The notes under the pieces were generated by a model. The model made no database searches and was not told the origin of the DNA. It saw only the letters and a list, made by a program, of their open reading frames with translations. From the IMG/VR virus record IMGVR_UViG_3300017792_000001, positions 168,697-232,696 of that record: a DNA stretch of 64,000 nt; one strand, given 5' to 3'. This document shows positions 18,763-39,327 of the stretch, piece by piece. The stretch's first letter is position 1. Each line of letters begins with the position of its first letter. The stretch is from a virus. Taxonomy: Duplodnaviria > Heunggongvirae > Uroviricota > Caudoviricetes. A program made the position numbers and the translations under genes.

Positions 18763-18838
18763 TGGTGGGTCGTGCAGGATTCGAACCTGCGACCAATTGG
18801 TTAAAAGCCAACTGCTCTACCAACTGAGCTAACGACCC
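18763..18838 (-). tRNA. tRNA-Lys(UUU)
   Basis: GGGTCGTTAGCTCAGTTGGTAGAGCAGTTGGCTTTTAACCAATTGGTCGCAGGTTCGAATCCTGCACGACCCACCA; full cloverleaf with CCA. Confidence 0.96.
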
Positions 18839-18847
18839 GAACGAGCA

Positions 18848-18919
18848 GGGTCCGTACAAGTTTCCCTGTCAATGCTAAGCAGTCTCACGCACGAAGGCTT
18901 GCTGCTCAACACCGGACCC
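18848..18919 (-). ncRNA. Structured three-way-junction RNA between tRNAs
   Basis: GGGTCCG/CGGACCC closing stem, an 11-bp helix with G-U pairs, and ACAGG-GAAA-CTTGT. Confidence 0.5.
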
Positions 18920-18925
18920 ACAAAA

Positions 18926-19002
18926 TGGCGACACCGAAGGGACTCGAACCCTCGACCCCTAGCGTGACAGGCTAGTGCTCTAACCAACTGAGCTACGGCG
19001 TC
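18926..19002 (-). tRNA. tRNA-Asp(GUC)
   Basis: GACGCCGTAGCTCAGTTGGTTAGAGCACTAGCCTGTCACGCTAGGGGTCGAGGGTTCGAGTCCCTTCGGTGTCGCCA. Confidence 0.95.
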
Positions 19003-19006
19003 TAAA

Positions 19007-19083
19007 TGGTAGGACGTCTGGGATTCGAACCCAGGACCAATGGCTTAAAAGGCCACTGCTCTGACCAACTGAGCTAACGTCCT
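19007..19083 (-). tRNA. tRNA-Lys(UUU), second divergent copy
   Basis: AGGACGTTAGCTCAGTTGGTCAGAGCAGTGGCCTTTTAAGCCATTGGTCCTGGGTTCGAATCCCAGACGTCCTACCA. Confidence 0.95.
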
Positions 19084-19089
19084 ATGAAA

Positions 19090-19166
19090 GGTGGGAACAA
19101 GAGGAATCGAACCTCCATCAGAATGCGACGCGCGCAAACTGCTCTGCCAATATGAGCTACGTTCCC
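19090..19166 (-). tRNA. tRNA-like gene with aberrant anticodon arm (pseudo-tRNA)
   Basis: Good acceptor (GGGAACG/TGTTCCC), D and T arms; anticodon arm non-canonical; ends ACCT. Confidence 0.6.
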
Positions 19167-19294: not shown

Positions 19295-19585
19295 TCACAG
19301 TTTCCTGGCTTTGAGTGGGCGCTCTACCGAGTTGTTGTACTCGACGTGAGCAACTGATGGCCCATCAACGAAGTCAAACAGTTCGACCTTCACTGTGATC
19401 GTGCCAGCTTGGTTCAAGGTAACAACGGCAGTCGCGTGTCGATACGTGGTGCGCTTCTTGACCAGTTCGACAACGCAGTCAGCAATCTGCTTTTCCAGAA
19501 ACGCGGTGCTCGCATCCTTTGGATACGTGGCGACCGTGATTACATCTTCAATGACTTTGTGGATTACTGACATGCCGATACCCAT
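19295..19585 (-). CDS. Hypothetical protein
   Basis: About 92-96 aa ORF. Confidence 0.6.
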   Translation of the reverse strand: MGIGMSVIHKVIEDVITVATYPKDASTAFLEKQIADCVVELVKKRTTYRHATAVVTLNQAGTITVKVELFDFVDGPSVAHVEYNNSVERPLKARKL

Positions 19586-19592
19586 GAGTGCC

Positions 19593-19829
19593 TCACGCCG
19601 TAAATAGTCGGCCAGTGATTCGAAGTTCTTCTAAACGCGGCTTTGATAGCCAACGTCGTAATGGTTTGCAGAATCCCGGGGCGCACAGCATGATACTCAG
19701 GAACATCTGTGCTGCGAATGTCGTATCCGCATTCAGGTTGCCGGTGAGATATGCGATGCAACCAAACAGGAGATACGAACACCATACAGCGCGAACCCAG
19801 AGGTTGAGTCGTGGGACGAGCTTGAACAT
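19593..19829 (-). CDS. Small membrane protein
   Basis: 78 aa, two hydrophobic segments, AAGGA RBS. Confidence 0.6.
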   Translation of the reverse strand: MFKLVPRLNLWVRAVWCSYLLFGCIAYLTGNLNADTTFAAQMFLSIMLCAPGFCKPLRRWLSKPRLEELRITGRLFTA

Positions 19830-19849
19830 AATGGTATCCTTGGAGAGTA

Positions 19850-19936
19850 TGGAGCGGAATTCAGGATTCGAACCTGACGGCGATCAACCGCCTATACCCT
19901 GCGCAGGGTTGTCCACCGAGAGGACAGGTCTTCCGC
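19850..19936 (-). ncRNA. tRNA-like RNA with Gly-type acceptor end and no anticodon loop
   Basis: GCGGAA/TTCCGC-T-CCA; T arm TCAGG-TTCGAAT-CCTGA; long variable arm; ACCCT-GCGC-AGGGT in place of the anticodon arm. Confidence 0.6.
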
Positions 19937-20099
19937 ATGAGGTCTGTGACGTAGACCAATCGACCAGATCACGCACACCACATTGAGTACACAGGCAGCG
20001 CTTCGGTTTATTCCGATTAACCGCAATGACAAGAATGGTTTGGTGCCCCTCAGAGGATGTCGCATGTCGCTCGTGATGGTTAAGGGGAACGCTCTGGTT

Positions 20100-21045
20100 G
20101 CTACGATTATATCCCATCGTCTGCCAGGGTCAGGACGCAGCGGGCGGGCTGTGTTCGGAAATAGGGACCGAAAGTGGACTGTCGAGAAGACCCAGGTAGG
20201 GCGACCAGGTCTGTCGAGCCGTGCAGGCGGCACCACCTTATCAACGCTCTCGTATCTGCCGGGACCAAGAGTCGTCTATCAAGTCGCTGCATTCACCCGA
20301 CAAACGCCGGGGATAATAAAGGTGCTTCACACTCGTTACCGCGTCAGAACCAGAAGGACAATACGGGAGGACGTTTCCGCCGAGTCGAAATCGCGTTCGC
20401 GTTCTCTATCTGCTGGTTAGAGGCCCTCACTCTGGATTCTCTCTTAAATTCTCAGGAAGAAGTCGAGTGTGAAGCGAAAATTGAAACCCACCTATAAGGG
20501 CTAGTAAGACTCGATGTTTAGGTTCGCTAGCGGAATTCCTACTTTCACTACCCACATCTGAAGGGCTTGATCCGGTCGGCTCGTGGCTGCGTGTGTCGGC
20601 ATTCTTTTCTTCTTTACACAAATAGGTGGGAGTGGTTGCGGCTCTCACTTCAAGAGAGCCGAGTGAGCAACTGCTTTCGGGGTTAGAGGCTCAAAACCGC
20701 ATCCCGTCTACAGAAGGCAACCATGCGCTTGATGGGCGACCACTCTAGTATCTTGTACGTAAGGCGAGGCAAACAACCCGACGGCACGCAAACGCAATAC
20801 TCACGCTGCCTATGCTCCGCAATTCACCCATTAACCGAAGCAGGAGTTTCCTCGGTGACGATCCTTTGGACCGCTGGATCAGGCGCGCCGACCTATCAAG
20901 TCAGTACCTGTCGCATACCCAATTGGGTTTCACGGATTAACCGATCATCAGTGCGACTGTGCGAAAGCCCTCTGTATGCGCAAAGGGCTTTCTATCTCTG
21001 TGGTTTCTTGGCGGGAAATCTCTGCTGCTGGAACAACAGGACACC
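20100..21045. ncRNA. Candidate large structured non-coding RNA or RNA array
   Basis: No credible CDS; tandem long-range helices (see findings). Confidence 0.45.
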
Positions 21046-21051
21046 CGAGCT

Positions 21052-21291
21052 TCACATTCGCTCTACCCGACCGATCCTCACGGGCAATTCGCTTCTCAGG
21101 GCGGTTGCATCACTCACCAAGAATTCCAGCTTGATGGTGTTTGTCGGTGCGTACTCCCGATTTGCAGGAGGCACCCAATTCCGTAAGATGACCTTCTCGG
21201 ACTCAGTGGCGTAATGCACCTTGTCTACGATCTGGTCGGCGGCCGATACTTGCACAGACAAACTCAGAACGAGCAATGCCATTGACAACAT
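21052..21291 (-). CDS. Small secreted protein
   Basis: AAGGAG RBS; signal-peptide-like N-terminus. Confidence 0.6.
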   Translation of the reverse strand: MLSMALLVLSLSVQVSAADQIVDKVHYATESEKVILRNWVPPANREYAPTNTIKLEFLVSDATALRSELPVRIGRVERM

Positions 21292-21483: not shown

Positions 21484-22455
21484 CTAAAGCTCTCCAGGGA
21501 ACTCTTTGCGTTCAGTCATGGACATGAACAACCAGGACGCGGTGCGACGTGCAACAGCGCATCCGGTGGCGTTATGTTGAATATTCACAGTTTCTGGTCT
21601 GAGGTCAGACAGTACCAGGTAACGTGCAACAGAACCATCCATCTTGAACTGACGAATCACCAACTGCGACAGCTTGCTGGAAACGAGGGCTGCGCGAGCA
21701 TCAAGCTGCTCTTGGTCGAAGTCCAGGTCGTGGAAACCCGCTTCAAGTCTGTACGCAGGTAGTTTGAGCCCTGCGAGTTCGTACAGGTCGCGCTTACCAA
21801 AGTCCAGAGTGAGTTTGAACTCAACCAGTGCCATGAACTGCGGGTTCTTTGCAGTCATGAGGCCTATTGCGCGAGCCACGGATTCTTCGGCACTGACGGA
21901 ACAGATGTCGAAGTTGTCTTCGATCATTGGGTCTGGCTGGTCCATCAATTCTTTCAGGCTTGCTTGCCCTGCAGCAAAAGTCGTGGGATGAACAACGACG
22001 TTGTTGAGGCCGTCGTTATACGGAGTGATGAAACGACCGACTGCACTCACCAGCACATCATCGCGTATCAGGACGCACATGAACATATCGGGGAAGATGA
22101 ACCCTGTATCATCGGCGATCACATCATAACCACAGAGCATGCCGAGGTAACCGGTGTCGCGCAGGGCAAGCTCAGTGGCGTGATCGTAGAAACTTACGAC
22201 AGGGTGTGTCCACTCTCCACGACTTTCACGAAAGGCTTCATCGAGTTCAGCAGCAACGCTCTTGCCTGCGATCCAGACAACCGCATCACCGGGTTGGCGC
22301 TTGCCAACTTCCTTCATCAGTTCGCCACGAATAATGCCGAGACTCGCAGGAGTCAGCGCTGTGGTTTCCCAATGAGGTTTGCTGACGAGGATGTAACGCA
22401 GCTCGTTGAGAACCTTTTCTTTCACGCCTAGGATTTTAGAAGTGATGACTTCCAT
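21484..22455 (-). CDS. Hypothetical protein
   Basis: 323 aa ORF; contains TGYLGMLCGYDVIAD. Confidence 0.75.
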   Translation of the reverse strand: MEVITSKILGVKEKVLNELRYILVSKPHWETTALTPASLGIIRGELMKEVGKRQPGDAVVWIAGKSVAAELDEAFRESRGEWTHPVVSFYDHATELALRDTGYLGMLCGYDVIADDTGFIFPDMFMCVLIRDDVLVSAVGRFITPYNDGLNNVVVHPTTFAAGQASLKELMDQPDPMIEDNFDICSVSAEESVARAIGLMTAKNPQFMALVEFKLTLDFGKRDLYELAGLKLPAYRLEAGFHDLDFDQEQLDARAALVSSKLSQLVIRQFKMDGSVARYLVLSDLRPETVNIQHNATGCAVARRTASWLFMSMTERKEFPGEL

Positions 22456-24689: not shown

Positions 24690-24769
24690 GTGTGAAAGTG
24701 CCCCAGCGATTATTATACAAACTTTTCACAGTATCCGCGAAACCGCCGGCGCGCGCAACAGTGCTTTTT

Positions 24770-26100
24770 AACCCCTGACCCGAAGGGTCGAGTGAACCAA
24801 ATCCATGAAACGGTTTCCAAAGATCCGTGAGCGGAGCGAACCTAGCCGAAGGCCAGAGAAGAACCATTGAGCGAAGCTCAAGCAGGAGCGTAAGCGACTG
24901 CCAAAGAACGTGACACGGATACCAGCTTCCTCAGCACCTGGTAAAAAGCATCCTCTCCTGTTCATCCTCGTTTCTACCCTAGAGAACGCTTCGCTCTTAT
25001 GGGCTCGCCTGTTTGCTCCGCAAAATCAGGGACCATAGTTCGGGCTTTTGAAAAAGGCTGTCAGAGGACATTGGGAAGTAGAGACTTACTTTCCGATATT
25101 CTCTAGCAGGAGCGTAGGAACACAAGCCGTGTCGGATGCTAGTTCGCGTCGCGGCTTTGCCGCTCGCTTTCGCCTTCGGCGAGGCTTCTATCGCTTCGCT
25201 CTCTCAAGCATCCCTTCCACGTCGTCTCTTTCGAGACAGTATTGCTGGCGGGCCAACGAATTACAGAGAGGAAAATTCTGAAAAGGTTCGGAGAACCGAA
25301 GGTGGAGAATTATCTGGTCAGCGAGCGACTTAAGGACAGAGGACGTAGTAGCGAAGATGCGAAGTAACTTCGTGAGTGTTGACAGTATCCATTTTCGTGA
25401 TTTTCGACACTTTTGCCTGTTTTTTGATCAGATCGTTCAAAAAATGAACAACATCGCTGGAGGTCGCGCCCTGTCTAGCTTCCAGAGGTGGCACTAGGTC
25501 CAGAAAAACATGGCACCCAGAATCGCTCCGTATACGTCTGGAGTTTCTGGATATATGCGGAGACACGTCGATTTTTCGCGCACTGCACCCCTACTTGTCT
25601 GATCGTCTTGCGTCGAACTTTTCACGACTACCTGCGAAAAACGCAAAACGGAGAAACGCTTCATAGACACTGCTTTTGGTATTTCCAGAATCGTTCAATG
25701 CACGAAAGTTGCGAAACGCAATTACTGTCATCAGTCGTCAAAACAGGCGACTTGCGGATTTGGGTATATAAAGCCATGGCTTTTGGTATTTCCAGAATCA
25801 CCTAATGCGCAAAACTCAAAATTCAGGCTCGAAAAACGCTGTACAAAATTTGATCAATCGCACAAATATATTTTCAAACGCTCGTTTGAATCATGTTTCT
25901 GACACGCTGTCACGATGCAACTTTTGCGAGAAACGATACTACACGCACGCGCAGCGATTCTCCGCATATAGAAACGGCCCGTTTTCTGGAGTGCAGGTTC
26001 AGCGGCGACTTTGGAGATTCGCATATTGGCTGCAGCCACGCATGACCTCCGCTTCAAGATTAACTAGGGCCTCAGATACGACAAAACCTACACTCAAAAC
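24770..26100. other. Non-coding region: mini-hairpin cluster, A-tracts and direct repeats (origin candidate)
   Basis: No convincing ORF; see findings. Confidence 0.45.
25672..25799. repeat. 21-bp perfect direct repeat GCTTTTGGTATTTCCAGAATC x2
   Basis: Copies at 25672-25692 and 25779-25799. Confidence 0.9.
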
Positions 26101-39157: not shown

Positions 39158-39241
39158 CACTGAGCCCGGCCATTGCGTCGGGCTTTGTCGTTCTGAGCAC
39201 CGCACAGACAACCTGATCTATGAGCGTCACCGCTAAACGGC

Positions 39242-39327
39242 TTGTACTACTGATGACAGTCGTGATATAATGATCTAGCTGATCGAACAGCAGCGTGATC
39301 AATAGTGGTTACGCAAATAGGTTAGGA
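39242..39327 (+). promoter_or_regulatory. Sigma70-type early promoter plus conserved downstream box
   Basis: TTGTAC-N18-TATAAT with TGn extension; TGGTT-N7-TAGGT-T-AGG 35 nt after the -10. Confidence 0.7.

Follow-up and report, generated by a model that had tools for sequence, protein, structure and literature searches.

The large ornate RNAs GOLLD and ROOL reportedly form multimers, according to a cryo-electron microscopy study, and recent structures of GOLLD, ROOL and OLE are said to be RNA-only assemblies. According to Weinberg et al. (PMC5737381), GOLLD (RF01998) and ROOL (RF03087) often lie near tRNAs and in prophages, and the only complex bacterial RNAs above the 581 nucleotides (nt) of ROOL are ribosomal RNAs, group II introns and GOLLD. 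Hammerhead ribozymes that flank genes are also known in phage and prophage operons, where cleavage would process the polycistronic transcript (Perreault et al. 2011, PMC3088659). We analysed a 64,000-nt stretch of a Caudoviricetes genome (IMG/VR virus record IMGVR_UViG_3300017792_000001, positions 168,697 to 232,696), called the window below; positions are those of the window unless another sequence is named. Next to a group of tRNA genes it contains a gene-free region, which probably encodes a large structured non-coding RNA (ncRNA) headed by a hammerhead motif.

This RNA is closest in kind to GOLLD and ROOL and is new as a family. It shares with them a size of several hundred to ~800 nt, a multi-domain and junction-rich build, a phage or prophage origin and a place beside tRNA genes, with which it is possibly co-transcribed. 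It differs from both in having no sequence or covariance-model similarity to either, in coming from a Pseudomonas-type jumbo phage and not from Firmicutes, rumen or lake sources, and in being led by a hammerhead, of which the passages on GOLLD and ROOL in PMC5737381 make no mention. With the phage type I hammerheads, the motif shares the core, the three stems, the open stem I and the location between operon genes. Its stem I, however, is only 6 bp long, no loop–loop or pseudoknot contact was recognised, it scores below the Rfam thresholds and four lineages have U·U at 10.1–11.1; it also lies at the exact 5′ edge of a large structured RNA, whereas the known ones flank protein genes. Literature searches on hammerheads, jumbo phages, the phage PaBG and large RNAs yielded no description of this RNA.

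Two further systems are comparable in part. The long ncRNA MALAT1 has its 3′ end made by RNase P at a downstream tRNA-like structure (mascRNA); MALAT1 is eukaryotic, and the same route is only proposed for the RNA in the window. The species 1 and 2 RNAs of phage T4 are stable non-tRNA RNAs that are likewise co-transcribed with a phage tRNA cluster; they differ in their size of ~120–140 nt and in having no ribozyme.

We read the interval from 20915 to about 19939 on the minus strand as the likely gene of a large multi-domain structured ncRNA, which is led by the hammerhead, belongs to a transcription unit of tRNA and accessory genes and likely acts in trans. It measures ~977 nt in the window, and the core common to all lineages (domains 1–4) ~750–800 nt. 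An earlier note on the window had proposed an undescribed large multi-domain structured RNA by the tRNA genes; this is borne out by strong covariation and by the lack of any Rfam 15 match. The ribozyme itself and the tRNA-like 3′ end had been missed.

Relatives and non-coding status of the region

Relatives were gathered by searching three neighbouring proteins in a large protein collection and by one exact-word metagenome scan, from which syntenic contigs were taken. They form eight lineages, all of which are uncultured relatives of the Pseudomonas jumbo phage PaBG: the window (with the near-identical L011), L002, L003 (with L012), L004 (with L014 and L015), L009 (from a compost metagenome; with L016 and L017), L025, L026 and L022 (with L023). 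A gene-free gap of 1.2–1.5 kb is found at the homologous place in all eight. A DNA search of known phages gave no match to the region, and tblastn gave none to two flanking proteins. In IMG/VR, searches with the 323-amino-acid (aa) and 272-aa proteins and three exact scans with invariant blocks gave no further copies. A 20-mer of domain 3 matched five metagenome contigs and two contigs of metagenome-assembled genomes; these matches are due to chance, as BLAST, nhmmer and the domain 3 covariance model (R1) found no homology beyond the word.

The region 19830–21051 is non-coding. Using a codon model trained on the long genes of the phage itself, no frame in it has a positive log-odds score, whereas the flanking genes are positive; this covers the ~950 nt that the earlier note had described as poor in open reading frames (ORFs). 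Substitutions among the relatives show no three-base periodicity in the gap (p 0.66–0.69), compared with p 2e-7 for the 323-aa gene and p 5e-4 for the 78-aa gene, and the indels in the gap are 1, 2, 5, 11 and 19 nt long. ORFs of 107–163 aa in the gap were considered as hidden genes and rejected: they have no Pfam or PHROG match, their codon scores are negative and their reading frames are not kept in the relatives.

Conserved fold and strand

Consensus folds were computed with RNAalifold, and a base pair changed on both sides is counted as a compensatory pair. For the whole region in five lineages, 307 consensus pairs were predicted, of which 304 were kept, with 96.7% of cells paired. This fold has 41 compensatory pairs, compared with 19.5 ± 2.8 in pair shuffles and 1–8 for slid partners. 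Because the consensus structure came from the same alignment that was being tested, column-shuffled alignments were also passed through the identical pipeline; they gave 8.2 ± 2.6 compensatory pairs, and the energy of the real alignment has a z-score of -5.5. The shared core of all eight lineages (alignment A8) has 225 pairs, with 97.2% of cells paired. Its 68 compensatory pairs compare with 12.1 ± 3.4 in column shuffles (consensus-energy z -10.5), with 28.1 ± 3.4 in pair shuffles (reached in 0/500) and with 5–12 in the slid controls.

The earlier note had named covariation among relatives and an Rfam scan as checks on its proposal. The first is answered by these counts. In the second, no Rfam 15 family matches any domain, neither at the gathering score nor, for short segments, with E relaxed to 10; GOLLD, ROOL, group I and group II introns, RNase P RNA and tmRNA are excluded as families on this basis.

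On the basis of G-U pairs, the earlier note had placed the RNA on the plus strand. The comparison of strands in A8 goes the other way: the minus-sense consensus folds at -209 kcal/mol and its reverse complement at -169 kcal/mol, with 68 versus 48 compensatory pairs and 10 versus 42 A-C mismatches. Together with the orientation of the hammerhead and of the tRNA-like element, the better minus-sense fold points to an RNA on the minus strand. As judged from these features, the sense strand of the ncRNA is the minus strand, so that it would be transcribed in the same direction as the tRNAs and the genes on either side.

Hammerhead motif at the 5′ edge

In the minus sense, the motif consists of stem I (GUCGCA/UGCGAC), CUGAUGA, stem II, GAAA, stem III and UA, followed by the predicted cut. 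The repeat GTCGCA/TGCGAC (20910/20952), which the earlier note had listed, is stem I of this hammerhead. A descriptor of the core and three stems, run on both strands of the 277.6-kb genome, has its single match at this site; the 6 relative loci scanned likewise have a single match each, in the homologous position, and 20 shuffled genomes gave 3 matches. The core is present in all eight lineages as CUGAUGA or CUGACGA, GAAA and U, including the A15.1–U16.1 pair, and only position 7 varies (U/C), as expected. H17 follows U16.1 and is A or C (GUA or GUC) in every copy, never G.

Compensatory changes are found in all three stems (consensus helices 1–3). Stem I varies from GUCGCA/UGCGAC to GUCGUA/UACGAC and GUUGCA/UGCAAC; stem II appears as CGG/CCG, GGAG/CUCC, GGGG/CCCC and GUGG/CCAC, and stem III as CCC/GGG, CGCU/AGCG and CUC/GAG. 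The minimum-energy folds of the copies in the window, L009 and L004 are three-way junctions in which stem I is open and the other two stems are capped. At the 5′ edge of the ncRNA, every lineage has a full type I hammerhead core that is conserved and covaries. A motif scan and Rfam found no second ribozyme at the 3′ side, and each locus has one hammerhead.

The terminator-like hairpin upstream of the motif had also been listed by the earlier note. It is kept in most lineages (among them L002, L003 and L004), but not in L009, where a different hairpin takes its place; in L009 and L022 other GC-rich hairpins are followed by U runs. Transcription must pass this hairpin for the ribozyme to be made.

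Domains and the tRNA-like 3′ edge

The features of the region and its neighbours are collected in Table 1. Domains 1–4 are the core common to all eight lineages and have a constant order, with domain 4 as the end of the core. Invariant runs in the core reach 18 nt, and many of them lie in predicted loops. Those of domain 1 include GGGAUGCGGUUUUG and CCUCUAACCCC, and domain 2 holds the invariant purine run AAGAAAAGAA, although its interior has diverged in L022. Domain 3 is the most conserved and its internal loops are invariant. Model R1 finds one copy of it in the genome and the expected copy in L022, L023, L025 and L026 (138–182 bits), and nothing in the PaBG genome or in the loci of the chance 20-mer.

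The six inverted repeats listed by the earlier note are all present at the coordinates it gave, and the consensus fold treats them differently. In the covariation-supported consensus, GCTTCACACTCG/CGAGTGTGAAGC closes domain 3; CCCACCTAT/ATAGGTGGG is the closing helix of domain 2, in which 5 pairs covary; and GGCTCTC/GAGAGCC, given as an enclosed stem, is a consensus hairpin, in place of which three lineages have a shorter UUCG-capped stem. Two pairings are not retained: TATCTGCCGG/CCGGGGATA is imperfect and both of its arms belong to other helices, and in place of AGTGGTTGC/GCGACCACT the adjacent pairing TGGTTGC/GCAACCA is preferred, on the strength of covariation seen in L009. A likeness of GAGGAAACUCC...CAUAGGCAG to the CR-I region of RNase P RNA was rejected in the absence of an RNase P model match; in the consensus fold the GAGGAAACUCC motif forms a local hairpin of the GNRA type.

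Domain 5 contains a TATAAT-like box. A sigma-70 promoter at 20133–20106 is doubtful, as its -35 hexamer is not conserved and the block is absent in L022. In L026 the box has become TATAAC through a compensatory change of A-U to G-C in the hairpin, and the box is unlike the repeated strong promoter motif of the phage itself. It is probably structural, as its pattern of change suggests.

The tRNA-like element at the 3′ edge has a 4-nt loop in place of the anticodon loop and gives a weak match to the tRNA-Sec model (21.8 bits). In the most diverged lineage (L022 and L023) this tRNA mimic is lacking; a canonical tRNA-Lys(UUU) lies ~45 nt after domain 4 and is followed by a domain-6-like module and the 78-aa gene. 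Domain 6 is therefore separable from the core. With the mimic in the window and tRNA-Lys in L022, a tRNA-type substrate of RNase P always follows the core, at a shifting position. RNase P would thus make the 3′ end of the ncRNA at the tRNA or tRNA-like element, in which case the RNA would be ~977 nt long in the window and ~803 nt in L022.

Just before the tRNA-Lys(UUU) of L022 there is also a 9-bp hairpin with a loop like the D loop of tRNAs (GCUCAGAUGGU; L022:12061-12178); the pair replaces domain 5 of the window.

Table 1. Features of the ncRNA region and neighbouring genes, in the direction of the minus strand.
Feature	Position	Strand	Remarks
323-aa protein gene	21484-22455	-	Flanking ORF, complete
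79-aa secreted-type protein gene	21052-21291	-	Flanking ORF, complete
Terminator-like hairpin GAAAGCCCT/AGGGCTTTC	20963-20992	-	After 79-aa gene, 5 nt upstream of hammerhead
Type I hammerhead motif	20957-20910	-	Complete core, three stems; predicted cut 20916/20915
Domain 1	20632-20908	-	Multi-branched, ~277 nt; helices 5-16, many with compensatory pairs
Domain 2	20486-20631	-	Closed by CCCACCUAU/AUAGGUGGG; helices 17-22, helix 17 with 5 compensatory pairs
Domain 3	20322-20477	-	156-nt irregular hairpin closed by 12-bp stem; helices 23-27
Variable hairpin between domains 3 and 4	20291-20318	-	Helix 28, 5/6 pairs changed on both sides
Domain 4	20164-20287	-	Three-way junction; helices 29-33, 20 compensatory pairs; densest covariation
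Domain 5	20100-20149	-	Nearly invariant block; TATAAT-like box within small hairpin (ACGAU/AUCGU)
Domain 6	19961-20100	-	~140-nt module, less conserved; helices 37-41 (five-lineage fold), closing helix with 2 compensatory pairs
Small conserved hairpin	19940-19959	-	Just before tRNA-like element; helix 42 (five-lineage fold)
Anticodon-less tRNA-like element	19851-19938	-	Acceptor stem, T arm, encoded CCA; helices 43-46 (five-lineage fold)
78-aa membrane-type protein gene	19593-19829	-	Flanking ORF, complete
96-aa protein gene	19295-19585	-	Downstream of 78-aa gene
Four tRNAs	18763-19166	-	0.7-1.1 kb downstream of ncRNA region

The syntenic site in PaBG

The record of PaBG has an unannotated 1.5-kb gap at the place syntenic to the ncRNA. 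It contains a hammerhead-like motif (L018:11566-11645) with a 44-nt branched insert at stem II, and the hammerhead-led structured stretch as a whole covers L018:11566-12106 (NC_022096.1, about 121565-122105). L027, a PaBG-like contig (78% identical), keeps the hammerhead-like motif, with compensatory changes in stem I and in an inner hairpin. The ~460 nt after the motif show no codon periodicity and have a consensus-fold z of -7.9 with L027; with two sequences in this alignment, the covariation test is without power. Homology of the gap to the RNA in the window was ruled out by blastn, model R1 on the whole PaBG genome, nhmmer and counts of invariant 7-mers. As PaBG shares the layout without sequence similarity, the architecture of ribozyme, structured RNA and tRNA predates the sequence family. 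Neither ribozymes nor non-coding RNA are mentioned in the paper on the PaBG genome (PMC7412058).

Two other features were seen at the PaBG site. Its tRNA-Ala(tgc) (L018:12296-12389; 94 nt, 48.9 bits with the tRNA model) has a 36-nt insertion in the anticodon region and adds to the tRNAs of this phage group whose anticodon arm is remodelled. The gap also contains two small unannotated ORFs (L018:11113-11350 and L018:12107-12289), of which one begins like a signal peptide and the other, of ~60 aa, is membrane-like; they are akin in type to the 79-aa and 78-aa genes of the window.

Weighing of the evidence and alternative explanations

Several observations weigh against the reading of the region as one hammerhead-led RNA that acts in trans. 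The identity of the gap to the window is 72–86% among the relatives, about the same as that of the neighbouring coding DNA; conservation of sequence alone is not exceptional, and it is the pattern of change that carries the case. Folded singly, the sequence is only weakly better than its shuffles, with z -1.3 and -1.6 for the two strands. On this basis alone the comparison with shuffled controls envisaged by the earlier note would have been borderline, and the case for a structured RNA rests on the relatives. The domains are closed one after another, with no supported long-range helix joining them. A pseudoknot scan of the part downstream of the hammerhead gave a few inter-domain candidates, with single compensatory changes (e.g. 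columns 715-719/782-786 and 85-89/146-150 of alignment A4); these are too weakly supported to claim. The tRNA-Lys of L022 splits domain 6 from the core, so that several RNAs could come from the region.

Other points concern the ribozyme. The Rfam hammerhead models find nothing on the window copy, and the L009 copy is far below the gathering thresholds (RAGATH-1-hammerhead 13.7 bits, threshold 56.3; HH9 12.4, threshold 52), with alignments that span the whole core. The motif is likely missed by Rfam because its stem I is minimal (6 bp) and without the elaborations of the family models. A tertiary contact between stems I and II, such as serves fast cleavage in hammerheads, was not recognised on reading the alignments, and no dedicated search for one was made. 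The catalytic metal site of hammerheads is placed at G10.1. The innermost pair of stem II, 10.1–11.1, is the usual G-C in L009, L025 and L022 and U·U in the window, L002, L003 and L026, with an extra U in L004; the copies with U·U may be slow cutters. Finally, the terminator-like hairpin 5 nt upstream of the hammerhead could limit read-through.

Some of these points would fit a different, less probable explanation, which we consider unlikely and yet worth weighing: a processing platform or array of separate small RNAs and cis-acting leader elements in a tRNA operon. The hammerhead would then merely uncouple the upstream mRNA, and the role of the domains would be to stabilise or control what follows them, namely the tRNA-like element, the genes of 78 and 96 aa and the tRNAs. 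Back-to-back closed domains without a supported long-range closing helix are consistent with such an arrangement, as are the tRNA-Lys between domains 1–4 and domain 6 in L022 and the variation of domains 5, 6 and the interior of domain 2 among lineages; gene-flanking hammerheads are known in phage operons (PMC3088659). The earlier note had also spoken of an array of RNA domains, and for domain 6 this holds. Domains 1–4, on the other hand, are always together and in the same order in the eight lineages, and their long invariant unpaired runs exceed what stability elements need. There is no processing signal within them either: each locus has its one hammerhead, and searches with tRNA models found no tRNA-like matches inside domains 1–4.

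It is very improbable that we are dealing with a diverged self-splicing intron, with a mobile RNA element or with some other large ribozyme missed by current models. Even with short segments and E relaxed to 10, no Rfam model of group I introns, group II introns or RNase P matches; no gene or tRNA is interrupted, the flanking ORFs being complete; and the genome has one copy of the region, in a syntenic position and, as it appears, inherited vertically. Nor was any reverse transcriptase, RtcB or RNA ligase detected in the phage (the search with T4 Rnl1 was uninformative, as its control matched nowhere). What speaks for such an element is the large size with invariant unpaired nucleotides, as in catalytic RNAs, the small ribozyme associated with it, and the precedent of circularly permuted group II introns, which reportedly long escaped detection. 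Circularisation of the RNA was considered separately and finds no support: RtcB and RNA ligase are undetected, and RNase P would leave a 3′-OH, which RtcB does not join.

Still less credence can be given to a structured RNA on the plus strand, antisense to the flanking genes. Mostly Watson–Crick helices can form on either strand, 48 compensatory pairs remain in the plus-sense consensus fold, and one imperfect helix of the earlier note does pair through G-U on the plus strand only; however, that fold is 40 kcal/mol worse and has four times the A-C mismatches, only the minus sense has the hammerhead core and the tRNA-like element, and the neighbouring genes and tRNAs are all minus. A DNA-level element (replication origin, packaging site or promoter array) or an ordinary spacer with incidental structure is just as hard to credit, because the sigma-70-like box at 20133-20106, the weak z of the single-sequence fold and the coding-like identity to relatives are set against compensatory double changes at 5–6 times the column-shuffle expectation, a G-U asymmetry between strands that is a property of RNA, a conserved hammerhead core, and a TATAAT box that is compensatorily altered in L026 and absent in L022.

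Neighbouring genes and other features of the genome

The source genome is 277.6 kb long and has direct terminal repeats. PaBG (Baikalvirus), with a DNA primase of 70% identity, is its nearest phage in the INPHARED collection, and the source is a PaBG-like (Baikalvirus-like) Pseudomonas-type jumbo phage. The genes and tRNAs around the ncRNA region are all on the minus strand, and a gene for a Tad2-like anti-defence protein lies 2 kb from it. The 323-aa protein is an orphan with 38–72% identity among phages whose surrounding DNA is ~80–86% identical. Its gene is thus fast-evolving, and as it adjoins the Tad2-like gene it is a candidate arms-race gene.

At 39229-39288 on the plus strand lies a motif that resembles a strong sigma-70 promoter and whose -10 box is extended (TTG(C/T)AC, 17 nt, then TGATATAAT); further copies are at genome positions 24451, 42321 and 54433. 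The four near-identical copies, ~45 nt each, are probably early promoters of the phage. There is also a second gene-free gap of ~1.5 kb, upstream of the 272-aa gene (L003:6290-7764, L004:6286-7767, L018:6154-7630). It is kept in all relatives and in PaBG, and its counterpart in the window is a hairpin-rich stretch at ~24700-25490.

Proposed mechanism and significance

For the hammerhead-led, trans-acting RNA that we favour, the following course of events can be proposed. Transcription would read through the hairpin after the 79-aa gene, and the hammerhead would cut itself between 20916 and 20915, so that the ribozyme and a 2′,3′-cyclic phosphate would remain on the upstream mRNA and the long RNA would receive a 5′-hydroxyl end starting with UGCGAC. 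The 3′ end of the long RNA would be formed by host RNase P, through a cut on the 5′ side of the tRNA or tRNA-like element that follows. By analogy, the released RNA would most likely act in trans during infection as a folded particle, either a scaffold or a decoy (sponge) for a host factor. Its place in an accessory island, by the Tad2-like gene, the fast-evolving 323-aa gene and the phage tRNAs, invites the speculation of a role in counter-defence.

A bolder proposal, which we put forward tentatively and hold to be rather doubtful, is that giant phage RNAs with a ~0.8-kb core form a class of their own, hitherto undescribed, whose exact ends are made by RNA alone (5′ by the hammerhead; 3′ by the RNase P ribozyme, at a tRNA or tRNA mimic) and which would fold into a particle: a cage like those of GOLLD and ROOL, or a large ribozyme or decoy directed against host defences that target tRNAs.

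A conserved core of ~0.8 kb with 225 supported pairs would rank among the largest complex bacterial RNAs, and large, intricately folded RNAs have repeatedly been found to carry out unusual biochemistry. Since a ribozyme precedes it and a tRNA mimic follows it, the exact ends of this RNA can be predicted. PaBG, which infects P. aeruginosa PAO1 and is the nearest cultured phage, has a predicted syntenic hammerhead-led structured RNA and would offer a culturable entry point. The finding also gives a defined biological context to the hammerheads of phages, whose roles are unclear.

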